Assembly: GCA_009602735.1 (NCBI GenBank)
Contig: WELA01000984.1
Span: forward strand, 339,097-403,096
Direction: 5' to 3'
DNA from: Mesotaenium endlicherianum
Taxonomy: Eukaryota
DNA: 64,000 nucleotides
Both the position numbers and the translations under genes were made by a program. Below the pieces are notes generated by a model that worked only from the letters and a program-made list of their open reading frames with translations, was not told where the DNA came from and searched no databases. Positions 23,193 through 62,076 of this stretch are shown here, one piece after another (position 1 is the stretch's first letter; each line of letters opens with the position of its first letter).

Positions 23193-23910
23193 TGTAATGA
23201 ACCAGTATATTGGTTGATATAATATTCGTTTAAATATAATAGCTAAATAAGTTCAGCCTGCTGAACTTTAGTTAGTATTCAGTCTGCTGGACCTTATAAA
23301 ATAATCAGTTTAATGACTCAGCCGGGAGCAACAGGCTGAAGCCAACTTCGGTCAGTTTGCTGACACATTCTTTGACAGCCAGCTGACTTCCGTACTCGGT
23401 AGCAGCGAACTGCCTAGATATGCATCTAAGTGTGGTGTGCTAGATGAATGGTCAGATGACATCCTTAGGATGGATGGCGATTTGGGATGATGGGAGATGG
23501 CGGTGGATTTGGTTAACTAAGGTCCTACCAACGCGGTTAACTCCCGGGTAGGCGGTGCCATCGCAATGGCCGTTGAACAGTAAACTCATTCCATGTACAT
23601 ATGCTAGGATTGCTCTCGAGTTCGGCATTCAAAAACAAGGCCAACTCTCTTGTACTGCTTACTGAGAGATATCTGGATCCAAGGCGAGAAGCCATTGATA
23701 TGCACTGTCTTCTAACCTTGCTTATGTATGAGTTTACTGATTGCATTATTGATGTTAGTTTACTTGCACTTGACTTACGAGTATTGTCCACTGCTAGTTT
23801 GTTGTCCTTTGTTGTTTAATCAATTAACAAAATATACCATAAAGATTACTTGTTGATATAAAGATCTTAATTAATTGTTAATCGCCTATTTGGTAAGTCG
23901 ATTCATTTCA
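23193..23910 (+). mobile_element. Solo LTR, family C (TG...CA, 718 bp)
   Basis: TGTAATGA...ATTTCA flanked by perfect 5-bp TSD GCCGC/GCCGC; inverted homolog at 46587-47293. Confidence 0.9.
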
Positions 23911-26327: not shown

Positions 26328-26460
26328 GCTAAAGACTAAATGACCCTTGTATTCCATTGACATGTACAATTTGTAAGCATTTTGACTGATTCGGCGTACC
26401 ACCAAATAGGGGCCCACCCAGACAGGTCCAAGCTTTCTCTTGATGACCCCAGGAAGGTAC

Positions 26461-27381: not shown

Positions 27382-30300
27382 GGTACAAATGCTGAGTATG
27401 CAGTTTGACCAAGTCCCCTTTAGAAAATGTCAGGTCCCGACGGTGTTGATTGGCATATTTTGGTTGGGTTTCTGGGCTTTGTACAGGTTGTGCTTAACTT
27501 TTGATAAAGTGTCAACGAACTCCTGAGTCAAATGTAAGGAGATCAAATTGTCAATCCCCTCAGGGTGAGTCAACGACTGCCCCAGAACATCTAAGGAAGA
27601 CTTAGGGACTTTATCCAGACTGAGTTCAAACGAAGTCATTCTCGTTGACGCATGAACAGCACTGTTAACTGCAAACTGAATCTGTGGCAACAATTCATCC
27701 CAATTATCTTATTTTTGGTTGATATAGACTCTCAACACCTCCTGCAGAACTCGGTTAGTTCTTTCAGTCTGCCAGTCAATTTGAGGGTGGTTTGCTGTGC
27801 TGAGCAGCTGTTTGACTCCCATTAATCCCATTAATGCTCTCTTGAACTTAGAGGTAAATTTGGAGTCTCTGTCTGAGATATATTGGAGGGCCATGTTGGC
27901 ATACTACATGCTTGTAGAACTGTCTTGCAATTTCGAGAGCAGTCACCTTGACAGTGGTGGGGATGAAAATGACCATATTTGTCAGTGTATCCACTACTCC
28001 CAAAATGGAATCATGCCCATTGGCAGTTCTCGGTAGTGTGACCACCCAGCACATTGAGATAGTCTCTCATCTTCCAGCAGGAGTAGGTAATGGTTGCAAT
28101 AACCCCCCGGGTGATGTGTGTCTAAACTTGTTCTTTTGACACTGATCACATGACTTAACATACTTTAAGACCTCCCGAGGTAATCCTTCCCAGTGGTAGT
28201 GTTTTGCCAATTTGCCAAGTTTGGCCTGTCTTAAGTGTCCACCCAGTAAATTGTCATGAGCCTGACTAAATAATAGAGACCTTAGTTCCGAGTTATGAGG
28301 AATGGCCAGCTTCAATGTGCCTGAATTGGTTTCATTTACTAGACCCACCCTTTAGCCTATACCCAAGTGTAGTAGCAAGACACACACCATCAGTTGGACT
28401 GGGCTCAAATGTTGGGTTAGAAAGGTAGGCTTTTCTACGTTGTTTAATGTAACGATTCTAACTTTCGAGAGAATAGTAAGAATCTTTTCTAAACTGTTCA
28501 GAAAGGAGTTCTGCAGAATTATAGAATTAGTGCGTGTGAGAGTTGCACTCACAATGACTCTCGCAGGTATTTATACCTGTTCAACGTGAGGCACTTGAGT
28601 GCTTTGAGTCACCACCTAGGGTACCAGTCATGTCAACGAAAATAGTCAAATGGATGTGACCCATTTGACCGAATGCTTGAAAATATGCCATGTGGCAGTT
28701 TCGAGACTTTCGACGAATCGCAACAAATCGTTTTGCGCCGAATAGACGTAGTTGCGTTCTTTGAATAGACATGTTTGTTCGTAGGCATGTCTTAGCTTCT
28801 TTCAAATAGACTAATCGCGGTCATGTCTTCTCGATGTTTTCGATAGACGTGACCGTTCGTCGTGCGCACAAGCTTTCGTCATGACCGAGTAATCGTCATA
28901 ACTACTTCGCCAATCGATTAGGTGTGATCGTCTCAAACAAGGGGTCGCGGGTTTGAATCCGCATGGACCGTTTTGTTTGAGTTTTATGATTTCGTTTGGT
29001 TTAACGACTGGTCGTTAATCCGAAATCAATGACTGTGCATTATCCGAAATAATGACAATAAACATAATCTGATCAATCCGTAATTGAATAGGTTATCATC
29101 TCATATTTATCCAAAGTAACTTCATGGATAATTATGTCGTACTATTGCAAAGTAGTCAAAATTTTTTACGGCACTTTTTGCGATACGACTTGGTCGTTTC
29201 GCTAATCGACTAGGGAATAGTCAGCACACGTGTGTGGCAAAAAACTCATCAAGGTGCAATAATTCATCAAAATCATATATTGATAAATAGCGTGATGTAT
29301 ATTAGGTACTTGGGAAACGTCCCAAATACGCCTAAAATAGCTCAGATCGTTACACTCCTCCCCCCTTATAAAGAACTTAACGTCCGCGTTAAGCGTCGTC
29401 TGTTAAGTCGTATGTGTCAATACTGACCGAAAACACCGGTGAACGAATGGACTTTGCTTCATCATAGGGACGGAAAAGAGCAAATATTTACGCACGTCTC
29501 TTTTGCGTTTGTTCATTGCATTACGACTTGTACCGGGTAGCACACTTGCCGTGGTACAGAGCTTGCTAGGTGAAAGCCCATCGTAACCAATACTATTTGA
29601 ACCAGGTCCTACGATGTAGTAGGATTTTGTCCTGAAGTTTGTACGAGTCCCCACTGGAGTCGTAGTCGAGCCATTTGATCAATAACTCCCTTGGGAGGCT
29701 TATGACGGGTGTAGCGATGTCCTAAGACGTCCTCTACACTCTAGGCTTATCATCATCGGCGAGTTCCAATTCCGGTGCTTGTGGCTAATATCGGCCGTCA
29801 GACCTAAACAGCTTTAGTAAATTGACTTGGAATACGGGATGCGTTTACCCCATGGATTTGCAAATCCAGTCGTTATGCAAGAGGTGTAACCTTTGCAGTA
29901 ACAATAAAAGGGCCTACCCAGCGAGGCAGACGGTTGCGCTTTTGTGGGTGCTTGAGTTGCAAGTTTTTTGTTTTGCAAAAGTACTTTATTGCCGACCTCA
30001 AAACTCATATCAATTTTGTGCGTATCAGCAAACTTTTTCTGCCGATCTCGAGCGGCGGCCCGAGCCAACTTTGCTTGTTTGTGCACCTCTTGAAGAGAGC
30101 GGACAAAGAGGCGAGCACGTGGTACTCTCATGGTTGGCATCCCCGCCTCACCGGTTACCGTATGCGTGAGAGGAGTGTGCGGATGTCTTCCGTAGTTCAG
30201 AAAAGAACAAAGTTAACACTTTTTTGATAAGCATAATTAACAGTGAACTCTGCAACTGAAAGGAGGGTGTCCCAGTTTTCTTAGAGAGACTTCACCTAAT

Positions 30301-44752: not shown

Positions 44753-46586
44753 TTAACACTAGATAGTCCAACGGAATTTATGCTCTTTGGCCCAACAATT
44801 ACCTGGACTAGATATTTTTCTCAAAGCTCATTAGTGGTTCAATTAACTTGTCTCTTATGGATTCTAGAAGGTCATATCACAATCTAGGTCACTATGCTTT
44901 TTTTTTGGTCAAGGGGATTTATTTTTTGCCCAAAAAACTTCAAAACTTTTTTGTCCAAAAAACGATCGAGAAAATTGCATACTTTGAGTGACTACCACAC
45001 TCAATTGACTTGATTACAAAAGTTTTGATTTTTGCCAAAATTGCTTATATAGGTAAGGAGTGTGCTTATAAAATTTAACAGTTATAACTTCAATATTCTA
45101 GAAGTTGTAGAATTTGAGAATTGGAAGTTATATTCGGCCCCCTGCTTTTTGCATGGCCCAACAAGAGAAGTATTATTGGCTTCACAAAACACATCCTATC
45201 AAGCTCAATACAAGGTCTTTGAACATGAAATTAAAGGATATGGTATGTAAGATAGCAATGTTTTTTATTAATATTTAAATTAGTTTAATAAATTAAAAAA
45301 TCTTAACAAGTCATTTCATCATATTTCAGGAGCAAACAGGAGTAAAGTTTTATTTTCAATAAAAAGAAATATTCTTAATTCAAGAAGGCAAAACAAAGTC
45401 ATACTATTGCTTTGTAGACATAGCAAGAAAAAAATGAAATTGATATAGCAAAGAATAGAAGTCTGGTAAAATCGACAACAAGTGCGCGTTATCGCCTACT
45501 TTTGCCCTTGATCCTTGACCTCCCTCTTATCTCCAACATCAAGGTGGTCTATCTGCCTTTGTATATGATACCTCTGAAAGCACTTAGAAGGACACAAGAA
45601 TCTTTTGCGAGGCTCACACATGAAGTGAACCTTAGGAGCTCTCAAGCCAGATGCACGAAGCCCAAAAGTGCCAGCTGTACACACTACGCATCGCTTCCTG
45701 TCCTTCACCTTTGCTAGAAAATACTTGTGAGTCCACCTTGCACCTGCAGCAATTGGGGCTGGGACGGTTTGGATCACCACCTTGCTAGGGCCTTCATCAT
45801 GGGGATGGCTGAAGTTGCACATGGCATCCTTGATCTCCAAGTAGTTGTCAAACCTGTCTTCGTCGGGTTGTGCCATCTTGTATAAGATGAACACAATAGC
45901 AAGCAAGCCATCAAAGATTCCCAGTAGGCCCTATGCCACCACTTCCTATTTACCAACACTCTCTCAGAACTATAGTTTCTAGCTAGACACATAGCATCAA
46001 ATTGATCAACTGCATCCTTGTACAATTTATAGTGTTCTACTAACTTTGGAGCTGGCAGAGACACTCTCTCTTTTCCAACATGCCTAAGCTGAGTTTTGGG
46101 AGCCAGACCCTTTGCTGTAGATAAAAATGCACAAGGCCTTTGATCATTCCATACACATGCAACCATAGAGGGGTGCTAATTGTATGCAGCTATAGAGTGG
46201 CCTGGAGGGTGAGAATCAGGCTTCATCCACAACAAGCCAGCAGGATAGTCCTTTCTATTTGTGACAACTGTCCCTGTGGCTGCATGTCCCATCTTAGCTA
46301 GTAGTGCAAATAGATGAGGTGAGGTGAAGCCTCTATCCACGATCAAATTAAAAAAAATACCCATAGGTAGCATACTCACTAAGTCTCGTACAACCTGTGT
46401 CTTTTGACCAGGAAACTTGACTCTGTCATAGATTATGAATGCATAACAAGAGTAAGTAAGGGCATCACAGATTGTGAACAATTCTATGCCATACTTGTAA
46501 GGCTTGGAAGAGTTGTACACTCTAATGAGGCATTGTCTATTTCTAATTGGGATTGTTCTTTCATCCACAGTCAGGTACACTCCAAG
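44753..46586 (-). mobile_element. piggyBac-like DNA transposon, 3' half
   Basis: Transposase remnant, AT-rich 3' region and a candidate terminus TTAA|CACTAGATAGTCC at 44753-44769. The terminus is tentative because the partner TIR is not in the window. Confidence 0.6.
45496..46586 (-). pseudogene. piggyBac (DDE_Tnp_1_7-type) transposase pseudogene
   Basis: LTVDERTIP...KPYKYGI, IVDRGFTS, ATGTVVTNRKDYP, DAVDQFD, KWWHR, and a C-terminal Cys-rich region RCVVC...C...LC...CFQRYH. In-frame TAG at 46176 and 1-bp frameshift near 45920; N-terminus cut off by an LTR. Confidence 0.9.
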
Positions 46587-47293
46587 TGAAATGAATCGAC
46601 TTACCAAATAGGCAATTAACAATTAATGAAGATCTTTATATCAGCAAGTAATCTTTATGGTGTTTTTTGTTAATTGATTTAACAGCAAAGGACAACACAC
46701 TAGCAGTGGACAATACTCGTAAGTCAAATGGTAGTAAACTAGCATCAATAATGCAATCAGTAAACTCACACATAAGCAAGGCTAGGAGACAGTGCATATC
46801 AATGGCTTCTCGCCTTGGATTCAGATCTCTCTCAATAAGCTTTACAAGAGAGTTGGCCTCGTTTCCGAATGCCGAACTCGAGAGCAATACCTAGCGTTTG
46901 TACATGGAATGAGTTTACTGTTCGATGGCACCGCCTACCCGGGAGTTAACCGCGTTGGTAGGACCTCGGTTAACCAAATCCACCGCCATCTCCCATCATC
47001 CCGAATCGCCATCCATCCTAAGGATGTCATCTGGCCATTCATCTAGCACACCACACTTAGATGCATATCTAGGCAGTTTGCTGCTACCGAGTACGGAAGT
47101 CAGCTGGCTGTCAAAGAATGTGTCAGCAAGCTGACCTAAGTTGACTTCAGCCTGCTGCTCCCGGCTGAGTCATTAAACTGATTATTTTATAAAGTCCACC
47201 AGACTAAATATTAACTAAAGTTCAGCAGGCTGAACTTATTTAACTTTTATAATTAAATAGATATTATATTTACCAATATACTGATTCATTACA
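46587..47293 (-). mobile_element. Family C LTR (707 bp), probably the 3' LTR of element C1 inserted into the piggyBac
   Basis: TG...CA homolog of 23193-23910; no local TSD; lies directly downstream of C1 pol and ORF3 on the same strand. The PPT-like tract is decayed (AAGTTGAAGTGAT). Confidence 0.8.
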
Positions 47294-47449
47294 ATCACTT
47301 CAACTTAACAAGTTGTCGCCTCGACAACACTAACACTTGGTACATGGTCCCTCTAGCTGAAAGTGTTGATCGACTCCCAACACCTTTTGCTTCAATCCTG
47401 ATACCTAACGGTGGGGGTCACTAGTAACAGCGTGCTCTCCCCTCGACCC

Positions 47450-49120
47450 TCAACCTATTGCCATTAGGAAGGAGATGTTCCTTGGGGGCCCATGGTCAGG
47501 GGAGCCAGACCTCCTCCTGTCTTGGGGTCTCCTGAAGCCTGGGGGATCTACGTAGGGGCCCCGCGGAGAACGCAGTAATTGGGTTGTTTCCTCCTACACA
47601 GTCTGAAACTGAAGGGAGGCAGCCTTCTCCTGGGCAGCCCTCAAACTGACAGGAACATATACCGGCATTCCAGAAGGATGTTGCATGACATGAGCCAAGG
47701 GCACATGCCCTCTCTGCGAGGAAGATGCTGGCAGGCCTCTGGCTATCTCTCTAGCAGCCCTCCTGTCTGCACTGTCTGATTGGGTCTTCGTGCCTGCAGA
47801 TGGGCTCTGTCCTTTGGCAGTTCCCAGCCAAGTGATATCTTCCTCTTCAGCGAGCTGTTGTAACGCCAACCCAGTCTTATCCCTTACAAGGGATGTGGCA
47901 GGTGTCAGGACCACAGCGGGGCTGGTGTCCTCCTCCTCGCCTTCCTCTTCTTCCTCCTCTGACCCCTCCTCCTCTCCTTCCCCTGGTTCCTCTGAGACTG
48001 CTGGGGTCTATTCTGTCAGCTGCTCCAGCTCTTTCCGAAAAAAAGAATATCCCACTGACCTTCCCCTTTTGGGTGCTGGTGGGGGTTGTTGAGTCCGGAT
48101 TGCATACAGGTCCTTTTCGACCTGCTTGCTTGCCCATTTGGCATAAGCGTGCTTCCCTTTAGAGAATGACTCACGGGCCCTGCTCCTGTCCTCCTGCATT
48201 TCTTGGCTCATGCAGTCTCTTACTCCATCCAATCTTGGGTCCCAAGCGGCAATATGAGGAGGCAACACTATGTTCCCCTATAGGTCCGTTAGGAAGTCTT
48301 CCTCCCTTGCCTTGTCATTTTGCTGGTCCCTCATGTTGATGGTCATCCACCGCCAACCGGTGGGCTTCTGGAAGAAGGCAGGGTCTGTTCTTTTCAGAGT
48401 ACAAGGGTACCAGTGCCCTGCAAAGTCTAGCTGACTGGTTTCCCTCGCCAAAAATGTCCAGCTTCTTCTCTCCATCTCATTTTACATGGCCTTGAACCTG
48501 TTATCGAATGTAGAGTCCTTAAAGCTGTCCGCGTCCATAGGATTCATCCTGATGACACTATCTTTTCCCCAGATACCCGGAATGGATACAGCTCCTATTT
48601 CATTCATCTGGGCCATTGCCTTGGCCTCTTTGACCGTATATCCTACCATCCTGGCGTAATTGTGGTAGAGGAGTCCTGTGCTGACCTCTATATACTTGTC
48701 GAAGCTATCAGATGTCTCCCCTTCCCTTCGCAGGATGTCCTGCTGTGCCTTACTGCGACTTCTCTGGGCATACTTGAAGACCTCCTCCACTAGATCAAAG
48801 CCCTTGCCCAGCACTGTGTAGCGGTAGCTGCTGATTCTCCTCTGTTCTTCTTCGTCAGCATGCTGCTTCCGCCTCTCCTCAGCTTGCCTCTCCTCTTCCG
48901 CCTTCTTGGCCTCCTCTGCAGCTTTTCTATCCAGTTCTTCCTGCCTCAGCCTGGCCTGCTCCTCCTCCTCCTTCTCCTTCTGTGCCTCCCGCTGTTGTTG
49001 GAGTCGTTGTGATTCTCGAGCGGAGATGGAGGATGATTCGATGTCGCCACGGAATTGCAAGTATTTTGCTTGTGCCTCTTCCGCTCTTCTCTTCCTCTTA
49101 AGTTCTGTCTTCTGAGTCAT
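47450..49120 (-). pseudogene. Extra ORF (ORF3) of family C element C1: unknown protein of about 510-557 aa (coiled coil, aromatic-rich core, acidic tail)
   Basis: ORF-track pieces 48482-49129, 48278-48475, 48008-48268 and 47594-47914 share one frame and are separated only by point stops; homologous to 50733-52208. Confidence 0.8.
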
Positions 49121-49478
49121 CCTGCTCAATCATAAACACAATGCAGTTAGTGAAGTCATGATACTTTGCCGCTACTGAGTGCTCGTGGTTAAAAAGAACG
49201 TGATAGGGAGAGTCCCTACAGTGTAGTACCTTGTGTGAGTGAGTATAACAGAGAATTGAGTTAGAGAGAGAAAGTGAGTATGAGCGCAGGTTGAGTGTGT
49301 AGAATGGTTATAAAATTCGCCTGGCTGATCCCGAAACGGAACACACTCCCTCCAACTTAAGTTTAAAGGTGGGCTGCCTGTCACAACTGTCACTATCTGT
49401 CACTAACTGTCACATTCCTCTCCGACTTATATGGAGACATGACCTCCTGTCACCTGTCCATGTCCACGAAAATGACAG

Positions 49479-50733
49479 TTAGGGAGGGGTGCCAGCCGCC
49501 GGAAGGTGGAACCGTTTCAATGCCCCTTTGGCATTGGTCAGCTAGTCTTTAAATTCCTAAGTGTCCCCAGAGGCGTCGTAACCCTTCCATCTGACCAGGT
49601 ACTTCATGACATATTTAGATGAGCGACGGACAGAACGAGCGTCTAAAATCTCCTCGACCTCATAATCCTCACGGTCACCATCTCGCACAGCGAGGACCGG
49701 TCCCGGTTGGACAGGTAATCGACCTGTGAACAGTGTGTCACCTTTGATGTATGGTTCAAGAATGAGACATTAAAGCCCGGGTGGCCCTTATATTATGTTG
49801 ACATATTCAGTTTGTAAGCATTCTGACCGACACAGCGCACCACCGAATATGGACCGATCCAAACAGGACCAAGCTTTTTCTTGACCACACCAAGCAGGTA
49901 CAGGTGCTGAGAATGCAGTTTGACCAAATCGCCCTTAGAAAATGGATATTGTTTCCCAGCGTCAAGCTTGGATGGGCAGTGGTTGTAAGAGACCCCCCAA
50001 TGGTGTGTGTCTAGACTTATTTCTTTGACAATGATCACAGGACTCAACATATTTCAAGACCTCCCAAGGTAATCCCTCCCAATGATAATGTTTTGCCAGT
50101 TTGCCAACAGCTTTGGCCTGCCCCAAATGCCCACCCAGTATACTGTCATGTGCTTGACTTAGTAAAAGGGACCTTATTTCCAAGTTATTAAGAATGACCA
50201 GCTTCAGCCTGCCTGAAGTGGTTTCAGTCACCCAGACCCCACCCTTAAGCCTATACCCGAGTGCAGTAGCAGGACACACACCATCAGTGGGGCTGGGCTC
50301 ATATGTTGGATCAGAAAGGTAGGCTTTTCTAAGTTGTTCAAGGAAGGACTTTTTCACCTTTAATGAAGTGAGTGTACAAAGGACTTTATCTACAGTATGC
50401 TGATTAAAGTTCCTTCCTTGCAGGTCACGTCTTCTAGAGAGTGCATCAGCAGGATTCAACTTCCTTTGTTTGTAGTCAATCTGGACTTGAAACTGCTCCA
50501 GCATCTGGCTCCAGCGGTTCTCCCTCCTCGACAGCTTGGACTTTTTCTGAAAGTGAGTAAGAGCTAGATGATCTGTAATCACCTTAAACGCTTTACCATG
50601 TAAGTATGCTCTCCACTGTTTGAGCACATGAATGATTGCTTGCAGCTCTTCATCATGCACAGAGTAATTAATCTCAGCTGGATTAAATTTCATAGACTCA
50701 TGTAACACAGGATGCCACTCCTGCTTTACCTTA
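49479..50733 (-). pseudogene. C1 pol fragment (RNase H, integrase with core deleted, chromodomain)
   Basis: QEWHPV..ES, NYSVHDEEL, TDH, QAHDSILGGH, WIGPYSV, DYEVEEILDAR...YLVRWKGY; stop at 49479. Confidence 0.88.
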
Positions 50734-52208
50734 GAGGTCGGCATACCTCTGGCCACCCCGCGTGTCCCTCTTCTGGCACCCCTGTCCTCTGGGGATTTCT
50801 GCTTTTGTCTGCTGCCAAGTACAGTCAGATCAGCTTCTTCCCTTGCTTGGGCAGGTGGGCTGGGGGAGCGAATGCGCGGTTCAATTACCTCCACGGCTGG
50901 GGTCACATGCCATATTCCTAATCTTGGCTCCTAAGGAAGCCTTGCCCTTGCCTGCCAGTGGGTCTCCTGCGTACTACCTCTTGATTCTCTTGCCTGCCCC
51001 TGGGTATCCTGAGTACCAGCTCCTGATGCTTCTCCTTTGCCTTGCTCTTCTTCCTCATCCTTCTCATCCTCCTCCTCTGAGAGAGTAGGAGTCTCGTCCA
51101 CTAAGTCGTCCTGCTCCCTGGTAGACATGGAGTAGTCTACTGACCTCCCTTTCTTAGGACGCGCCGGAGGTTGCTTGGCCTTCAGCCTGCTGATATCTAT
51201 CCGGCCTGCATTCTTTGCCCATTTGACAAAGGTATGCTTTCCCTTAGAGAAGTAGTCTCTCCCCCTCCTCCTGTGCTCTTGGTCTCTGAATTATATTGCT
51301 CAGGCAGCCATTCAGCCTAGGGTCCTAGGGGGCAATGTGAGGTGGTAGGATGAGGTAGCCGTCTAGGCCATAGTGGAAGTCATCTGGTTGGGCTGGGTCA
51401 CATTCCTGTTTTTAATTTGTGACGGTCATCCACCTCCAGTCTGTTGGCTGCTGGTAGTACTGGGGTCCATGCTCAGCTTTCCTCAGTTTACACGGGGACC
51501 ACTGGGGAGAGAACATCTGCTGTCCTGCGTCCTTGGCCAAGTACTCCCAGCTCCTTCTCCCAACTTCATTGTAAGCTGGCAGTAGTGTGAGGTAGAATAC
51601 CGTATCCTTAAAGCTATCGGGCCGCATGCTCACCATTTTGATGAGGATCTGATCTTCCACTGTTCTCGGTATTGGGACTGGCTTGTTCTCTGAATCATCT
51701 GCAAGGTACCGGGCCTGCTCTGCTGTATAGCCCACCATCTTGGCATAATCTTCGTAGAGGACCACACCAGTGTGTGTCTCAATGTACCTATCCAATGCTG
51801 CAGTTCCTTCCCTTTGTAGCAGTGTTGTCTGTTCCAGCTTGTTGATCTCCCGGGCTGCCAGCAATGCTTCCTTCACTTTATCAAAGTTTTGGCCACCCAC
51901 CACAGTATACCTGTAAGTGGCCAAGCTCTTCTGCCTGTCCGCTTCAGCCTTTTTCCTTCTCTCCTCCTTTGCCGCTGCCGCTTCTTCTTGTTGTTCTTCT
52001 GTCTTTCCTCCTCAGCTTTCCTGAGGTTTTCCGCTTCTTGATCCTTCTTCCTCTGTGCTTCTTCTGCCGCCTCTTGTTGTCTGCGGACCCTTTCTTGTTC
52101 TCTCCTTGTGAGGGACGTCGCCGCCAGCTCCTTCTGGTATTGCTCCATTGTCCTCCTGGCTTCTTCTGCCTTGCGCTTTTTCTCCTCCTTTTGTGTGGTG
52201 GGAGCCAT
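50733..52208 (-). pseudogene. Extra ORF (ORF3) of family C element C2, frameshifted and 3'-truncated
   Basis: MAPTTQKEEKKRKAEE coiled coil; YRYTV, DRYIETHTG..Y..YAKMVGYT, DSFKD, RRSWEYLA, PTDWRWMT and FSKGKH..KWA are shared with C1 ORF3. Confidence 0.8.
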
Positions 52209-53284
52209 TCTGCACATGTGACCAGGGCACAAGTTAGTAGGATATCGACCTTTGTCATAGGAGTTGCAGGAAGGGAGTAAGTTCGTATTAGTATGGTATA
52301 TTCGTTCTTGTTTACCTTACAGGGTGATTGCTAGGAGTGGACGTAGTTGCGGTGCGGAAGACGTAAACGTATGAATGTGTTTTCAGGTGTGTTAAGTGAT
52401 GCATTGCTGTGCGAGGCCCTTTTTCCTTCAACCCAAGGTGCTTTATGTGGGCCAGGCTGTCCCTTCTGTCACTATGCTGAGACTTAGGATTCACATAACC
52501 GTCCCATCTGTCACTATGCTGACACTTAGGGGTCACATAACTGTCCCTTTCTCGCTCTCGCACACTAACTGTCATATATTTTCCCCTCCAACTTAAATGG
52601 AGACAGATTCTCCTGTCACCTTCCCGTGTCAACAGAAATGACCGTTAGGGAGGGGCTTCAGCCGCCCGAAGGTGGACCCGTTTCAACGCCCCTTTGGCAT
52701 TAGTCAGCTGGTCTTTAAATTTTCAAGTGTCCCAAGAGGCATCATGTAGTGATTTGAGTTATTATATATTAGTTCGCATATATTTTAATGTTTTCAAATA
52801 TATTTGGAGTAGTATTGTGTGGAGTCAAGTGTGAATAGGTACTCTCGTAACTTGGTTCATGTCCTTTGAACCTTCCAAGGCATTTTCGAAGTTAGAAGAA
52901 AGACCTAGAAGAACTCCATGTGGCAAAAGTCAGATGTGCCATTTTTAAGTCAAAAGGACATGTGTACATTATTCTAGAAAGAGGTGGCAAGTTTTGGGAT
53001 GTGTTGGGTGCCAACACATCAACATACACCTTCCTAGAAATTACTTATGTAGCAAGTATATAAACAAGAGCTAGAACATAGAAAGACATTCCAGAATCAC
53101 TCTTGTACTTGCCAAAATCCAGAAATATATTAACTTTCAAGAAGCCATCTCTCTTTCAAGAAGCTACCACTTGTGTTCAAAGATCCTTGTCTTGAATAGA
53201 TAAAGTATTCTGTTTTACTAAGTACTTTATCTATCTGTTTCACTACAGTGGTATCGGAGCTAGGCACTTTGGTAGCACAAGAAG

Positions 53285-54565
53285 ATGGCCGATCCCCAAG
53301 ACCAACAGCAAGCTTTCGAAGGAAGCCCTTCCTCTCCAAGACACCCTCCTCCAGCGCCGATGGGAGAGCCCACTCAAGAAAATCTGAAACAACAAGAAGC
53401 ACCACAAAGAGGAGCACACCCTCCTCCAACGTCGATGGGAGAGCCTACTCAAGGAAATCTCCAACAACAAGAAGCACCACAAGGAGGAGCACCGTCAAAT
53501 CCCGTGGCAGCCGCTATAGCAAAGTTAACCCCACCACAAGGAGTTCCCGCAAATGAGTGGGCAGCCTTCCTAATGACCGTCCACAACCAAGTGGGCCTGG
53601 CCACCTATGAAGCAACCGTGCAAGCGTCAAGAGAAGCTATGGCTGCCATGGTTGCCCCTATTGCGAGCAATGCTCAAAATCCAGCCCCGGCTCAAGCGCC
53701 TCCACAAGAGCCAACGAGAGCAAGGAAACTCATCAAGCCCGGCAAACCCGACACTTTCAACCCCGGGAAAGGTGCCAACCTGAATTTATGGCTCTACCAA
53801 GTGGAGACGTACCTCGCGTTCCTTGAAGTACCCGAGGAGGACTACGTTCCCTTTGCCGTTACCTTACTTAGAGGAGCAGCAACATCATGGTGGCGTAACT
53901 ATCAAGCGGCTATATATCAAGCTATGGCGCACCCCATGCTCGGCCAAGAGCCCCCACCATCATATGCAAGATGGGCAGATTTTCGTGAGGCCCTCAAGAA
54001 GCAATTCATGCCCATCAATGCGGAGAAGATTGCCCGAGGAAAGCTCCACCATCTCAAGCAAACGACGTCCGTTCAAGAGTATACATCCAGATTTCACGCC
54101 CTCACTCTTGAGATCCCCAACATGTCTCTCGAGGAGAAGATTGACCGTTACATCTTTGGCCTCAAACCCAAGGTGGCAAAGGAAGTGGAGTTACGCGACT
54201 TGACGGACTTCTCAAAGATCATTGAAGTGGCCCAAAAGGTGGATACCTTGGATTTCAAGCACTCCGTGCCTTCATCTTCACGGGTACCGACGACGCGGGT
54301 GTACGCAGCCCCTTCCACATCCGAATCTGGACCCACACCCATGGAAATCGGAGTTATTAAAAGGGACCCCGCGGCTGCCCGGAAGAGTGGAAGACCCTCC
54401 AATGACACTTATGATGCAAGAAACCAGCAAGGAGTGAAAGCAAGACTCTCCCCGGCTGAAAAAGAAGCTCTCATGACGGCTGGACTATGCTTCTATTGCA
54501 AGGAAAAGGGCCATCGTGCACTTTCATGCCCCAAAAAGTTGTCAAAAAACGGACAGCGCCGGTAG
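53285..54565 (+). CDS. gag: A2 Gag, 426 aa
   Basis: Retrotransposon gag motif [10 protein letters not shown] and CCHC knuckle [14 protein letters not shown]. Confidence 0.95.
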
Positions 54566-57500
54566 GCCAGGAGCCTACCACCCCAAGACCCACTTCACGA
54601 GAAGGCAACACGCCAAGTGAGGTGGAGACCCCCGTTGAAGACGACGTTCCAGCCCCAATGAGTTTGAGAGGTTACCTTGGAGGAGAGAAGGTCCACATCT
54701 TGGTGGATAGCGGAGCTCAAGGCAACTTCATTGCTGCAGATTTTGCCACCAAGCACGGTATTACTATGCGAACTCTTGACCACGACGAGGAGATTATGAT
54801 GCCCGATGGATTCTCCTATACTACCCCTTCCAAGAAGACGTACCCCTTGGCACTCTCTATCAAGTCCTTCAAGGATAGAGTAGTGTTCTCCCCCATGCAA
54901 TTGGGCAAGTACGACGTCATCCTAGGGACGCCTTGGTTGACCAAGCACAACCCCCAAGTTGATTGGAGGACCGGTACTATCAAGATCAAGAATGACATCA
55001 CTTCAAGAATCTGTATTTTGCGCGCAATCCAGAATATCCAGACCCAAGACATCCAGAAGCCGGCACACGAGATACTATTGTCCGCCCTCCAACTCAAGAG
55101 ACTTGTGAGGAAGGGACACGAGCTTCTTTTGGCCTTGATCACGCCAAAAGACATCAAGAAAGACATCGAGAGTCAAGAAGGCAGCCCCGTTCCCAAGGAG
55201 ATACAAGAAGTCTTTGAGGACTACAAAGAAGTGTTCTCCCCGGAATTGCCCAAGGGCCTACCCCCCAAAAGATTCGTAGACCACAAGATAGAGTTGGAGC
55301 CCGGAAGCAAGCCCATCTCTCGGCCTACGTTCAAAATGTCATACACGGAGCTAGACGAAGTCAAGAAGCAAATCAAGGAGCTACTGGAGCATGGCTTCAT
55401 TCGACCTAGCAAGTCGCCATTTGGAGCCCCGGTGCTATTTGTCAAGAAGAAAGATGGTACCTTGAGGATGTGTGTGGACTATCGCGCCCTCAACAAGATC
55501 ACCATCAAGAATCGATACCCGCTGCCGCGCATGGATGAGCTCATGGACCGGCTGGTTGGAGCCAAGTACTTCACGAAGATTGACTTACGGAGCGGCTACC
55601 ACCAGATTCGCATCGCAGAACCGGACATAGAGAAGACGGCATTCAGGACAAGATATGGACATTTTGAGTTCATGGTCCTGCCATTTGGACTCACCAACGC
55701 GCCAGCAACTTTCATGACTATGATGAACACCATATTTCAGCCCATGTTGGACAGATTTGTGGTGGTATTCATCGATGACATCCTTATCTACAGCAAGACC
55801 CTTGAAGAGCATGCGAGACACTTGAAAGAAGTCCTTGAAGTATTGAAGCAAAACAAGCTGTTTGCGAAGGAGTCAAAATGCGAGTTTGCCAAACAAGAAG
55901 TGGAGTTCCTAGGTCTCCACGTGACTGCTGATGGCATCAAGATAGACCCCAAGAAGACCACGGTGGTGGAGGAATGGCCAACCCCCACGACCAAGAAAGA
56001 ACTCCAGTCATTCTTGGGATTTGCCAATTGGTACAGAAAATTCATCCAAGGCTTCTCGCACATAGCAGCCCCCCTGACAGATCTACTCAAGAAGGACAGG
56101 CTATATACATGGACCGAGAAAGAGGAAGAGGCATTTCAAGAGTTAAAGCGAAGATTGACCACATCCCCGGTGCTCACACTCCCAAGTCCAAACCCAGATT
56201 GGCCCTTCCACGTCATCACCGATGCATCTTCCTATGCAATAGGAGCAATCCTGCTTCAAGACCAAGGCAAGGGACTGCAGCCCATCGCCTACGAGTCAAG
56301 GAAGCTAAATCCAGCCGAGCAAAATTATACAACCACGGAGCGAGAGGCATTGGCGATTGTACATGCCTTGAAGGTTTGGCGCTGCTACGTTGAAGGACGC
56401 AAAGTACTGGTCACCACGGACCACGAGGCGTTAAAGCACCTCCAAACGCAGCCGTATCTCTCAAGGAGACAAGCAAGATGGAGCGGATACTTGCAACAAT
56501 ACAACATCACGATTCAGTACCAGCCCGGCAAGACAAACCCGGCTGACCCCCTCTCAAGACTGCAATTAAATGCAGTGATGGTATCCCTGAAGACAGATCT
56601 GGAAGCTCGATTTTCAGCCGCCTATGAAAGAGACCCTTACTACAAGAACGGAGAAGCAGCCTTGGACCCATGCAAGAAGCAAGAAGGCAATTATTGGGTG
56701 AGGCAAGATACGGGCCAGAGATGTGTTCCTAATGACTTAGACCTCCGGCTCTTGCTTCTACGAGAAGCACACGACAACCCTCTTGGAGGACACTTTGGAA
56801 TCCTAAGGACCACGGGCGTTCTAGCTAGGACTTATTGTTGGCCAGGCATGTCTAAGCAAGTCAAGGAGTACTGCAGGAGCTGTGACACATGCCAAAGAAT
56901 CAAGCCATCATCGCAAAAGGCGGGAGGACTCCTCCAACCACTACCAATCCCCGAAAGACAATGGACGGACATCTCAATGGACCTTATCGTGGACTTGCCC
57001 GTGACACCTCGAGGCCATAATGCAATACTCACGGTGGTGGACAGACTTACCAAGATGGCTCATTTTATTCCCACGACGACTAAGGCTACAGCACCACAAC
57101 TTGCAAGACTCATCTTTGACAACATCTTCCGACTCCATGGACTACCATCAAGAATTGTGTCAGATAGAGATCCAAGATTCACAAGCCATTTCTGGAAAAA
57201 TCTCTTCAAGAACTTGGGTACATCGCTGGATATGTCTACTGCCTACCACCCACAATCAGATGGGCAAACCGAGCGTATGAATCGTACCCTAAAGACCTCT
57301 CTAAAGGCCTACGTGTCTACCCTCGAGCAAGACTGGGACATGTACTTGACCCCCCTCGAGTTTGCCTACAACAACACTACGCAGGCCTCTACCCAAGAGT
57401 CCCCATTCTTCCTCAACTATGGCTTCCATCCGACCACGCCACTGAGCTTCACGGCTGGCCATGATGAAGTACCTGCAGCCACAGATTTTATGGAGACATT

Positions 57501-58071
57501 AGAAGCAGCCCTTACAGCAGCGAAGAAAGCTCTACAACACGCGCAAGATGCTCAAGCAAGAGTGGCGAACAGATCCAGAAGAGAAATTACGTACAGAGTG
57601 GGTGACAACGTGTTACTATCATCCAAGAACATTTCCCTGAACAACAGGCCTGCCGGCAGCAAGTTCTCTCCCAAGTATTTGGGACCCTTCAAGATTATCC
57701 AGCAAGTCAACCCCGTTGCTTTCAAGCTAGAACTTCCCCAGACTATGCACATCGACCCCGTATTCCACGCTTTCCTCTTCAAGTTGTATGTGCAACCCGA
57801 CAACAAGTTCCCAGGACGTGTGACAACCCCACCAGCCCCAACAATAGTGGATGATCATTTGGAGTACGAAGTGGAAGACATAGTGGCTATGAGAAATTTC
57901 AGGAGACAGCAGCAATACTTGATCAAGTGGAAAGGATATCCAGATTCGGAGAATAGTTGGGTGGCGGCGCACTACCTTGACAAAGTTCAGAGAAAGTTGA
58001 AGCGCTTCCATGCCGCCAACCCCCATCTTCGACCAGCCCCAAGTCTCTCTACTAAAAGCCCGAAGACTTGA
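54487..58071 (+). CDS. pol: A2 Pol (protease, RT, RNase H, integrase, chromodomain), -1 frame relative to gag
   Basis: LVDSGA; FIDDIL; TDASS/ERE/TDH; HHCC zinc finger; DLI/SDRD/ERMN integrase DDE; GPF motif; chromodomain YEVEDIV...[15 protein letters not shown]. Confidence 0.96.
54544..54579 (+). promoter_or_regulatory. Putative -1 ribosomal frameshift signal (A_AAA_AAC plus hairpin)
   Basis: In-phase slippery heptamer at 54544-54550; hairpin GGTAGGC-CAGGA-GCCTACC at 54561-54579; identical in A1. Confidence 0.75.
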
Positions 58072-60003
58072 GGGAGGCAGCCTGCCACCATCAAAAAGCA
58101 GCAGAAGACCCCTTGGAGGCAGCCCGCAAGAACCACAAAGAGGAAAAAATGACATTAGACACTTTTCTCTTCTTGCAGTTTCTGAACAAAAAACTAAAAC
58201 TGCTACTGGCNAACAAAAAACTGAAACTGCTACTGGCGATAGGTCTCTTCATAATAAATTTTGAAAATTTACTTGGCTGTAGTCCATGAGTAGTCGGTCA
58301 TTTGGAGTCCAAGTTTGCTCAATTTGGAGCAGTGGTGAGAGAGATATGATGCTCTAAGAAGAAGGGGGTCCGACTGCTGGCATTGTTAGGGCAGAATATG
58401 CCTTCTGACATTGTGCCATCCTCTGAACTTGGAATGCTCTGAAACTCAAGACTCTGGTGAAACATCTTACAGCGCCTAGTTTGAGACTTAGTTTGCAGAA
58501 TTTGGAGAAGCATAGAAGGACTTATGATTTTCAGAAGTTTCTGAACATATTTGGAGGAGTGCCTACTCTCTCAGCTCTCAACGACAGTCCAGAGATTAGA
58601 ATGCTCTCAAATTTGGTGACTCGGTAGAGTTCTCCGACGCGGTCCGTTTGGCACTCGAATTTTCAGATTTGGAACAGTTCTGTGGCCTCTATGAATTTTT
58701 GAGTTCGTGGCAGATTTGGGCCAACTTGTACAATTTTCTTTATCATTAAGGAGTAGGCTAGCCAATAAGGTCACACCACCTACGACCTTGCCTAGTCTAC
58801 CTTACATGTGTAGCACCTGACTTGGCGCCTTTGACTAGTCCTCTTCACATGTGTGGCATCTGACTTGAAACTGTTGACTAGTTTGCTCCACATGTGTAAG
58901 ACCTGACTTGACGCGCCGAGACGTCGCTTTTTCTATCGGGGGGGTGATGTAGTGATTGGAGTTATTATATATTAGTNCGCGCCGAGTCGTCGCTTTTTCT
59001 ATCAGGGGGGTGATGTAGTGATTGGAGTTATTATATATTAGTTCGCATATATTTTAATGTTTTCAAATATATTTGGAGTAGTATTGTGTGGAGTCAAGTG
59101 TGAATAGGTACTCTAGTAACTTGGTTCATGTCCTTTGAACCTTCCAAGGCATTTTCGAAGTTAGAGGAAAGACCTAGAAGAACTCCATGTGGCAAAAGTC
59201 AAATGTGCCATTTTTAGGTCAAAAGGACATGTGTACATTATTCTAGAAAGAGGTGGCAAGTTTTGGGATGTGTTGGGTGCCAACACATCAACATACACCT
59301 TCCTAGAAATTACTTATGTAGCAAGTATATAAACAAGAGCTAGAACATAGAAAGACACTCGAGAATCACTCTTGTACTTGCCAAAATCCAGAAATATATT
59401 AACTTTCAAGAAGCCATCTCTCTTTCAAGAAGCTACCACTTGTGTTCAAAGATCCTTGTCTTGAATAGATAAAGTATTATGTTTTACTAAGTACTCTATC
59501 TATCTGTTTCACTACACATCATAACCCTTCCATCGAATGAGGTACTTCATGACATATTTAGACGATCAACGGATCGAGCGCGCGTCTAAAATCTCCTCAA
59601 CCTCATATTCCTCAGGGTCGTCGTCCCGGACAGTGGGGACCGGTCCCGGTTGGACAGGTAACCGACCTGTGAACTATGTATTACCGTTGATGTATGGTTC
59701 CAGGAAGGAGACATTAAAGACAAAGTGACCCTTGTATTCGGCTAACATGTTCAGTTTGTAAGCATTTTGACCGACACGACGCACCACCGAATGTGGACCG
59801 ACGTAGACGAGACCAAGCTTTTTCTTGACCACACCAGGGAGGTACAGGTGCTGAGAATGCAGTTTGACCAAATCGCCCTTAGAAAATGTGAGCTCCCGAC
59901 GGTGTTGATTAGTGTATTTTTGTTGATTTTCTTGGGCTTTGTGCAGGTTTTGTTGGACGTTAGACAGGGTGTCAGCAAACTCCTCAGTTAATTGGAGGGA
60001 GAC

Positions 60004-60509
60004 TGTAGTGAAACAGATAGATGAAGTACTTAGTGAAATAGAATACTTTATCTATTCAAGACAAGGATCTTTGAACACAAGTGGTAGCTTCTTGAAAGAG
60101 AGATGGCTTCTTGAAAGTTAATATATATTTCTGGATTTTTGGCAAGTACAAGAGTGATTTTGGAATGTCTTTCTATGTTCTAGCTCTTGTTTATATACTT
60201 GTTACATAAGTAATTTCTAGGAAAGTGTATGTTGATGTGTTGGCACCCAACACATCCCAAAACTTGCCACCTCTTTCTAGAATAATGTACACATGTCCTT
60301 TTGACCTAAAAATGGCACATCTGACTTTTGCCACATGGAGTTCTTCTAGGTCTTTCCTCTAACTTCGAAAATGCCTTGGAAGGTTCAAAGGACATGAACC
60401 AAGTTACTAGAGCACCTATTCACACTTGACTCCACACAATACTACTCCAAATATATTTGAAAACATTAAAATATATGCAAACTAATATATAATAATTCAA
60501 ATCATTACA
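60004..60509 (-). mobile_element. Solo LTR, family A
   Basis: TG...CA ends, TSD GAGAC/GAGAC, inside the C2 integrase. Confidence 0.95.
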
Positions 60510-62076
60510 GAGACCGAGTTCTCAATCCCTTCAAGGTGAGTTAAAGACTTCCCTAGGACATCTAAAGGAGACTTAGGGACTCTACCCAGGCTCAGTTCAA
60601 AAGGAGTCTTGCCCGTTGACGCGTGCACCGCACTGTTGACCGCAAACTGGATTTGAGGTAACAGGTCATCCCAATTATCTTGTTTTCGGTTAATATGGGC
60701 TCTCAGTACCTCTTGCAGAACTCGGTTATTTCTTTCAGTTTGACCATCAGTCTGAGGGTGGTTTGCTGTGCTAAGCAGCTGTCTGACTCCCATTAACCCC
60801 ATTAAAGCCCTCCAGAACTTAGAGGTAAATTTTGAGTCTCTGTCTGAGATTATATTAGAAGGTAGCCCATGTTGGCATACTACATGGTTGTAAAACTGTC
60901 TCGCTGTTTCGAGTGCAGTCACTTTGACAGTTGTGGGGATGAAAATGACCATTTTTGTCAGTTTATCCACGACTACCAATATCAAATCATGCCCATTAGC
61001 AGTTCGTGGTAGTGTGACCACCCAGTCCATGGATATAGATTCCCAGCGTCCAGCTGGGATGGGCAGTGGTTGTAAGAGGCCCCCCGGTGGTGTGTGCCTA
61101 GACTTATTCTTTTGACATTGGTCACAGGACTTAACGTATTTCAAGACCTCCCGAGGTAATCCCTCCCAATGATAATGTTTTGCGAGTTTGCCAACAGTCT
61201 TGGCCTGCCCAAATGCCCACCCAGTAAACTGTCATGTGCTTGACTCAATAAAAGAGACCTTATTTCGAAGTTATTAGGAATGACCAGCTTCAGCTTGCCT
61301 GAAGTGGTTTCAGTCACCCAGACCCCTCCCTTAAGTTTATACCCGAGTGCAGTAGCACGACACACACCAGTAGTGGGGCTGGGCTCAAATGTTGGGTCAG
61401 AAAGGTAGGCTTTTCTAAGTTGTTCGAGGAAGGACTTTTTCATCTTTAGTGAAGTGAGTGCACACAGGACTTTAACTACAGCATGCTGATTAAAGTTCCT
61501 TTCTTGCAAGTCAGGTCTTCCAGAGAGTGCATCAGCAGGATTCAACTTCCCTGATTTGTAGTCGATCTGGACATGAAACTGCTCCAGCATCTGGCTCCAG
61601 TGGTTCTCCCTCCTCGACAGCTTGGACTTCTTCTGAAAGTGGGTCAGAGCTAGATGAGGTGTAATCACCTTAAAAGCTTTACCATGTCAGTATGCTCTCC
61701 ATTGTTTGAGCACATGAATGAAAGCTAGAAGCTCTTTATCATGCTCTGAGTAATTAATCTCCGCTGGATTAAATTTCATAGACTCGTACGACACAGGGTG
61801 CCACTCCTGCCTTACCTTACCATCCTTTGTGGTTTTCTCAGCAGGCTGCAACAAAATAGCACCCATGGCAAAGTCAGAAGCATCAGTGACCACCTGCACC
61901 GGTTTGCCGGGGTCATACACGGCTAGCACTGGGGCAGAACAAAGAGCATCTTTAAGGGTCTGGAAGGCAGCCTGCTGCTCTTCCCCCCACACATACCCTA
62001 TGTCTTTCTTAGTAAGGTCAGTCAGTTTACTGGCCATTGTAGAATAATTCTCAATAAATCTCTTGTAGTAGTTAGC

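Follow-up and report, generated by a model that had tools for sequence, protein, structure and literature searches.

Introduction

Sense-strand open reading frames (ORFs) located between pol and the 3' long terminal repeat (LTR) form a described class among LTR retrotransposons, and the function of extra ORFs in plant-type elements is treated as an open question (PMC7264820). REXdb regards such extra ORFs (eORFs) as either fast-evolving or independently acquired (PMC6317226). The present report concerns a gene of this kind, designated ORF3, which is carried by two decayed copies (C1 and C2) of a chromovirus family, family C, both on the minus strand of a 64,000-nt stretch of the Mesotaenium endlicherianum genome (assembly GCA_009602735.1, contig WELA01000984.1, positions 339,097 to 403,096; hereafter the window, whose own numbering is used throughout). 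Being sense in orientation, at least 250 codons long, and situated between pol and the 3' LTR, ORF3 has the layout of the aORF-3S / eORF-3'F class. Sense extra ORFs in such elements are already known; the ORF3 protein itself is new, and a literature search, with subscription papers outside its coverage, found no publication on family C or on this protein.

Members of the class from Athila, SIRE, Tat, and Tekay elements resemble ORF3 in position, orientation, length above 250 codons, high divergence, and, for the most part, the lack of a known domain (PMC7264820; PMC6317226), and splicing has been reported for Bagy2 (PMC7264820). ORF3 departs from the plant aORF-3S class in having no membrane segment and no match to Athila ORF-1, the plant mobile domain, or Transposase_28. 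The eORF sheet of REXdb, whose columns look shifted in the Athila row, records eORFs of Tekay, forward 3' ones among them, in all four columns (33, 12, 18, and 8), whereas Chlamyvir, Tcn1, Reina, Galadriel, and CRM have no entry; Additional files 1 and 3 may add cases (PMC6317226); family C thereby differs from Chlamyvir and Tcn1, the algal and non-seed chromovirus clades, as that sheet lists them. In a survey of fungal Gypsy elements an "add. ORF" is depicted, its function given as unknown (PMC2864245), and both this ORF and a metagenomic family described below (A2) are like ORF3 in following a Tf2-like SH3 pol end, within about 1 kb, as a long sense ORF made up of a coiled coil, a core, and a low-complexity tail. 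Other cargo has been reported in algal chromoviruses with DAM or DNMT domains (bioRxiv 10.64898/2026.05.21.726589) and in orchid elements with AlkB (PMC9289625); methyltransferase or AlkB cargo was considered for ORF3 and rejected, as no such Pfam match was found in it.

Further analogies lie outside the chromoviruses. Gene23 of maize Grande (aORF-3R) is likewise an accessory gene of the 3' internal region, driven by a promoter of its own and encoding a nuclear product (PMC7264820); unlike ORF3, it is antisense and belongs to a non-chromovirus lineage, and the two are likened here by description, not by sequence. The VANC21 and VANC6 proteins of VANDAL elements, like ORF3, are accessory proteins encoded by a transposable element, and VANC acts via a short tandem motif, which finds a parallel in a motif array of family C (PMC6719617). 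VANDALs, however, are DNA transposons, whereas ORF3 resides in an LTR element, lacks any Pfam match, and is known here from sequence alone. In layout, family C also recalls the foamy virus tas/bel-2 region, in which accessory ORFs precede the 3' LTR and are accompanied by an internal promoter and by extra purine-rich tracts, including a central polypurine tract (PMC7828637), although foamy viruses are vertebrate retroviruses with env and no sequence link to family C.

ORF3 as an internal gene of family C

In C1, ORF3 occupies 47450..49120 (-) as a single frame of 556 codons, which runs from an ATG at 49120 to a terminal stop ending at 47450 and is interrupted by four internal stops (codons 213, 281, 371, and 509). 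The other five frames of the stretch hold 13-24 stops each, and across 2000 shuffles the best frame never held fewer than 10. The C2 counterpart (50734..52208, -) has two frameshifts and point stops and has lost its 3' end at the junction with C1 pol; it matches C1 ORF3 in three pieces (tblastn E 2.7e-10, 1e-51, and 1e-23, the core being the piece at 1e-51). The gap from the pol stop to the start of ORF3 measures 358 nt in C1 and 436 nt in C2. These measurements bear out a preliminary description of the locus, which had noted a sense ORF 360-440 bp past the pol stop in both copies and, in C1, one frame interrupted just by point stops; the protein motifs quoted there were all found again in the C1 and C2 translations and alignments. 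The same description had held that the two ORF3 proteins are alike in motifs alone, that their DNA is hard to align, and that the adjacent pol DNA is near-identical, all of which needs correction: the proteins match along their length, with 44% amino-acid identity over 204 codons of the core, the ORF3 DNA aligns at 60% identity over 1224 columns, and pol, at 85-91% DNA identity, is close but falls short of near-identical.

Codon-position identities between the C1 and C2 cores are 0.61/0.67/0.46, with a pN/pS of 0.54 (bootstrap 0.45-0.67), and the ratio of nonsynonymous to synonymous divergence (dN/dS) is 0.31 rather than near 1, which indicates purifying selection. Contigs assembled from two DNA runs of one sample map to 47150-49700 in large number (8046 and 6812), and their summed depth over ORF3 is mostly 1-2.5e5, against 42-86 for listed single contigs, although this sum is not a copy number. 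Another sample yielded a 504-nt contig that covers 49058-49591, from the pol end through the ORF3 start, and three listed contigs with 22-31 differences each run from the LTR across its edge at 47293 and on into the spacer that follows ORF3, so that the placement of ORF3 between pol and the 3' LTR, as first described, extends to other copies. At C1 stop codons 371 and 509, moreover, about 100% of the family depth has another base (among the 40 of 448 rows listed). In view of the selection, the depth, the bridging contigs, and the open stop sites, ORF3 is with high confidence a repeated, high-copy, linked internal gene of family C under purifying selection.

The C1 3' LTR (46587..47293, -) is 707 nt long, begins and ends with TG...CA, lacks a target duplication, and is abutted by a polypurine-tract-like motif (47294..47307, -) that is only moderately purine-rich in C1. 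The pattern, which was drawn from these same sites, occurs four times in the window: here, twice after C1 pol (49415..49429, -, where C1/C2 identity begins to fall, and 49345-49359, -), and once after C2 pol (52581..52595, -). A TG follows the pol-proximal motif, and the possibility of a long LTR beginning there and enclosing ORF3 was considered and rejected. Varied flanks occur at 47293 (78 and 84 contigs, agreement 0.35-0.37) and were not seen at 49413 among the 24 of 995 loose ends listed; the depth over ORF3 is lower than that over the pol end, not double; and a solo LTR at 23193-23910, with its own 5-nt duplication, is 92% identical to the 707-nt LTR. For these reasons ORF3 is assigned to the internal region, and the extra pol-proximal motif likely marks an earlier 3' end or an additional priming site. 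Contigs of other copies also join the LTR start at 47293 to 47868, 48360, and 49495, within ORF3 or pol; these joints reflect nested insertions or deletions elsewhere in the family.

Divergence between C1 and C2

From pol toward ORF3, C1/C2 DNA identity drops from 87% to 76% to 57% across 49577-49278 and remains at about 57-60% from there on. Fourfold-site identity is 0.17-0.39 in ORF3 vs 0.61-0.88 in pol, and dS is 1.55 or saturated in ORF3 vs 0.16-0.54 in pol; since silent sites are not under protein selection, pol and ORF3 have different histories. Exchange of ORF3 as a cassette between subfamilies is accordingly judged probable and is favored over fast protein evolution. In reads of a third relative, the pol side resembles C2 and the ORF3 side C1, the two meeting at 49400/52583; this joint has eight and nine supporting reads in two runs and one each in two others. 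The preliminary description had inferred a "fast-evolving or exchangeable" cassette; the second term is supported by these data and the first is not, the synonymous sites of ORF3 being several-fold more diverged than those of pol.

Predicted transcription unit

The two densest clusters of (T/G)GACAG in the window precede the two ORF3 genes, with four GTGACAG at approximately 10-nt spacing upstream of the predicted C1 promoter (49378..49413, -) and five (T/G)GACAG in C2 (52457-52574, -). Each array is followed by a putative promoter element, in C1 a TATA-like box (TATAA, 49308..49312, -) and then a CT-rich stretch, with CATAAA at 52447 as the C2 counterpart of the box. Predicted introns of 108 nt in C1 (49122..49229, -) and 106 nt in C2 (52210..52315, -) share an AG/GTA donor, an ACTAAC branch, and a CAG acceptor that lies one base upstream of the ORF3 ATG in both copies, and the order of array, TATA-like box, CT-rich stretch, donor, branch, and acceptor is the same before both ATGs. 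On the two strands of the window the full donor-branch-acceptor pattern occurs in two places only, one per ORF3 ATG, and for each copy 0.2-0.3% of shuffles reproduce its strict branch-acceptor part. These signals make it fairly plausible that ORF3 is a separate spliced transcription unit with an internal promoter.

A third array, of four TGACAG at 13-nt spacing, lies outside family C (6746-6785, -). The KNOX/BELL submotifs include TGAC, and in Chlamydomonas the zygote element reads YGACAYGAC (PMC4889651); as an exact ZYRE of that form the TGACAG array was rejected, the sequence not matching, and a zygote link is for this reason only a lead. RNA was surveyed in four runs, with 6-18% of reads sampled. 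Transcription of the family C LTR type is seen in the polyA runs (46524-47293), with one end per direction, and reads leaving 46587 have one common flank (agreement ~0.9), which suggests one expressed locus elsewhere.

The ORF3 protein

Residues 1-96 of C1 ORF3 are 53% charged and likely form a coiled coil; they are followed by an aromatic core (97-340), a basic PPAPKRGR motif (347-354), an acidic patch of net charge -18 (366-400), and a low-complexity tail. KRKR is a further basic motif, and C2 has a basic motif matching that at 347-354. A hydropathy scan of C1 and the C2 pieces found no membrane segment or hydrophobic N-terminus (top 19-residue Kyte-Doolittle mean 0.86 in C1 and at most 0.5 in C2), in keeping with the initial view that the protein, having neither transmembrane segment nor signal peptide, is not Env-like. 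Two Cys and two His are common to C1 and C2, and a metal site built from them is possible.

Searches for relatives returned no known family, and the protein, not recognized when first described, is still without an Env or extra-ORF match. ORF3 matched no family in Pfam, NCBIfam, or PHROGs; the known plant eORF domains PF03078, PF10536, and PF04195 gave no match at E 0.1 or E 10, and no Gag or zinc-knuckle family of Pfam matched, while the Gag of family A was detected at E 3e-16. A word-indexed search with residues 95-365 at lengths of 306-975 accepted 0 of 1038 candidates, an HMMER profile found nothing at E 0.001 among 1.84 billion representatives, and neither 82 viral contig stretches nor 32 metagenome contigs contained a homolog. 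Three matches to PDB sequences (E 0.28-1.1; HNF6, HutZ) were taken as chance. Integrase relatives are at most 56% identical among the best 120 listed, Closterium being the commonest named source, and the host's own proteins seem absent from the searched libraries; the blank therefore means that no distant relatives lie in range, not that the protein is rare in the host's kin. From its composition, its basic motifs, the motif array, and precedent, ORF3 may tentatively be viewed as a nuclear regulator of the element's own transcription.

Sense 3' open reading frames in metagenome relatives

Metagenome loci were fetched with the C2 integrase, and the best 80 of 203 (38-51% identity) were inspected, many of them of common source and hence not independent. 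At least 1.5 kb lies behind the SH3/chromodomain match in 31 of the 80, and many of these carry a long sense ORF. A profile built from 11 such ORFs, A2, matches 36 of the 80 loci; these fall together in a single integrase clade (97% support in a quick tree) that excludes C2. The A2 ORFs (L011:7973-10099, L014:9486-11453, L015:8572-10446, L018:7335-9389, L021:7400-9184, L024:9810-11396, L028:2445-4442, L040:4717-6717, and L059:8525-10369, among others) encode 450-710 aa with an N-terminal H-x-C-x-x-C, a coiled coil, a proline-rich linker, and a conserved core. One named relative of the family comes from Russula brevipes, and the clade is likely fungal Ty3/gypsy.

In Pfam the A2 family matches no domain except weak coiled-coil entries, and the ESM Atlas held no usable match to a natural protein of the family; its alignment is deep enough for folding. 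Homology to ORF3 was tried and rejected, with an hhalign probability of 0.2% over 15 columns (G-x-T-x-x-E-A) and a profile E of 1.7 or worse, and A2 thus differs from ORF3 in showing no detectable homology and in its separate integrase clade. The G-x-T-x-x-E-A stretch may resemble UBA-type helical bundles. An extra ORF had at first been called atypical for chromoviruses; that judgment is weakened by the Tekay 3' eORFs, the fungal "add. ORF", and the 36 of 80 metagenome relatives with an unrelated sense ORF.

The window and its other elements

The window is a nest of LTR retrotransposons. C2 pol survives as a main part, from RNase H to the first half of the chromodomain (59517..62075, -; self-alignment and Pfam), which is interrupted by a solo LTR at 60003-60509, and as a 3' end with the second half of the chromodomain and the stop (52645..52743, -; self-alignment). 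A full-length family A chromovirus (52744..59516, +) interrupts the C2 chromodomain and is flanked by a 5-nt target duplication; it has no extra ORF between pol and LTR, its 942-nt spacer from pol to the 3' LTR (58071-59013, +) holding no ORF longer than 46 codons, and its 505-nt LTR is present in at least seven copies within the window. The C1 pol remnant (49479..50733, -; Pfam and self-alignment) comprises RNase H, integrase zinc finger, Tf2-like SH3, chromodomain, and stop; it starts abruptly within RNase H at 50733, and its integrase core is deleted near 49942. The pol stops lie at 49481-49479 (C1) and 52647-52645 (C2). At the junction 50733/50734 a deletion has fused the C2 ORF3 tail to C1 RNase H, and the frame continues from ORF3 into pol. 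The 5' LTR, primer site, gag, protease, and reverse transcriptase of family C are lost or outside the window for both copies.

Pfam recognizes RT_RNaseH, Integrase_H2C2, rve, and SH3_Tf2-1, as well as Chromo (E 2.7e-8 in C1), and the order of RNase H and integrase with a C-terminal chromodomain marks family C as a chromovirus; in a quick integrase tree that included no clade references, C2 forms a long branch without a firm placement. The family C chromodomain has the aromatic residues of the cage. Among plants, REXdb describes aromatic cage residues for non-seed plants and algae only (PMC6317226); taken with the integrase relatives, this would tentatively point to a green alga or non-seed plant. 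A third, more diverged family C pol fragment (80-84%) lies at 26330-26460 and 27382-28447 (-), cut by family B LTRs, and ORF3 was not found beside it. Directly past the C1 3' LTR is a decayed piggyBac-like transposase (45496-46586, -; DDE_Tnp_1_7, E 3e-24), probably the target of the C insertion. A GC-rich frame at 14174-18343 (-) runs for 1389 codons without a stop and matches no Pfam family; it is possibly a host exon or another element.

Proposed explanation and alternatives

The reading preferred here, to which a probability of about 45% is assigned as a whole, is that ORF3 is a family gene that was exchanged as a cassette, is expressed from its own spliced mRNA, and encodes a nuclear regulator promoting its own element. 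The pol-proximal motif with its TG would then represent either an older 3' end of the element or a second site of plus-strand priming, and template switches in its vicinity could combine one pol with varying ORF3 modules. The ORF3 transcription unit would consist of the TGACAG array, the TATA-like box, and the 106-108-nt intron; the protein may oligomerize via its charged N-terminus, its basic motifs would bring it into the nucleus, and its acidic patch could act on chromatin or the transcription machinery, making it a transactivator or an anti-silencing factor. A more elaborate version, which is unlikely, envisions a self-contained, swappable regulator module in which the old 3' end would serve as internal promoter, the array would be read by KNOX/BELL-type homeodomain factors or by ORF3, and a spliced leader would precede a nuclear protein of new fold that would relieve its own subfamily of silencing, perhaps at the zygote stage; such a module would amount to an LTR counterpart of VANC, with protein and target motif exchanged together.

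Several observations weigh against the preferred reading. The function of ORF3 is a prediction only, no homolog of it was found in the libraries searched, and both AlphaFold models, built from two to three sequences, are of low confidence (mean pLDDT 35.9 and 40.6). A single pair of defunct copies, nearly saturated in dS, underlies the dN/dS value; the sites in question also served to define the splice, polypurine, and TGACAG patterns, so that the chance figures for these are too favorable; the 49400/52583 joint could stem from an equidistant relative; and the window holds no complete family C element with 5' LTR and gag. Expression over C1 ORF3 is sparse, at a depth of 0-12.5 per strand and bin vs 20-150 at the LTR peaks, and the sole notable sense signal, in two polyA runs, may consist of copies of one fragment. 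Unspliced reads span the predicted intron, mostly antisense in the polyA runs, and its spliced joint was not seen among the four joints listed or among the 15 of 59 listed in a second analysis.

ORF3 could alternatively be a family gene with a role in particle or RNA biology, such as RNA export, particle scaffolding, or nuclear import of the integration complex, and be spliced env-style from the 5' LTR. An acceptor directly before the ORF3 ATG would also suit env-type splicing, the env-style splicing of Bagy2 and the accessory-factor roles proposed for aORFs offer precedent (PMC7264820), and a coiled coil with basic motifs is compatible with such functions. Nevertheless, both copies have a matching donor just 106-108 nt upstream, itself preceded by a TATA-like box and the motif array, and ORF3 lacks a membrane segment; this alternative is considered rather unlikely. 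Capture of a host gene, or of a piece of another mobile element, as a passenger that does not serve the element would agree with a promoter and 5' untranslated region intron resembling those of a host gene, and the seeming absence of host proteins from the libraries, where even the listed integrase relatives are distant, leaves room for a host source. A passenger would decay, however, whereas ORF3 is under purifying selection between two subfamily versions with dS near saturation, is represented at high copy depth, and in most of the family reads open at two of the stop sites, so that a passenger origin appears decidedly unlikely.

The divergence itself might be explained without any exchange, if ORF3 and its flanks evolved faster than pol or if pol was homogenized among subfamilies. 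Fast evolution was an option of the preliminary description, REXdb allows eORFs to be fast-evolving as well as independently acquired (PMC6317226), and pol dS is itself variable (0.16-0.54); yet synonymous and non-coding sites have also diverged, stepwise at one motif, which selection at the protein level does not explain, and homogenization of pol is itself recombination. Such accounts are therefore held very unlikely. Finally, ORF3 might lie in a long LTR beginning at the TG after the pol-proximal motif, where the motif and TGTGACAG at 49413 resemble an LTR start and identity drops, or it might be a displaced Gag, given that family C gag is absent from the window. Against a long LTR stand the position of the varied flanks among the loose ends listed, the contigs of other copies in which the ORF3 spacer meets the LTR at 47293, and the depth of ORF3, and against a displaced Gag the lack of any Gag or zinc-knuckle match in a search that did find the Gag of family A; both are most improbable.

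Significance

Family C presents a defined unit, with a predicted promoter, intron, and start codon, a nuclear-type protein, and a recombination point, of which two deeply diverged versions sit on closely related pol genes. Should ORF3 prove to be a self-specific activator or anti-silencing factor, the VANC principle would be extended to LTR elements. The occurrence of sense 3' ORFs of the A2 family in an unrelated, likely fungal lineage suggests that plant surveys understate how common such genes are in chromovirus-like elements.

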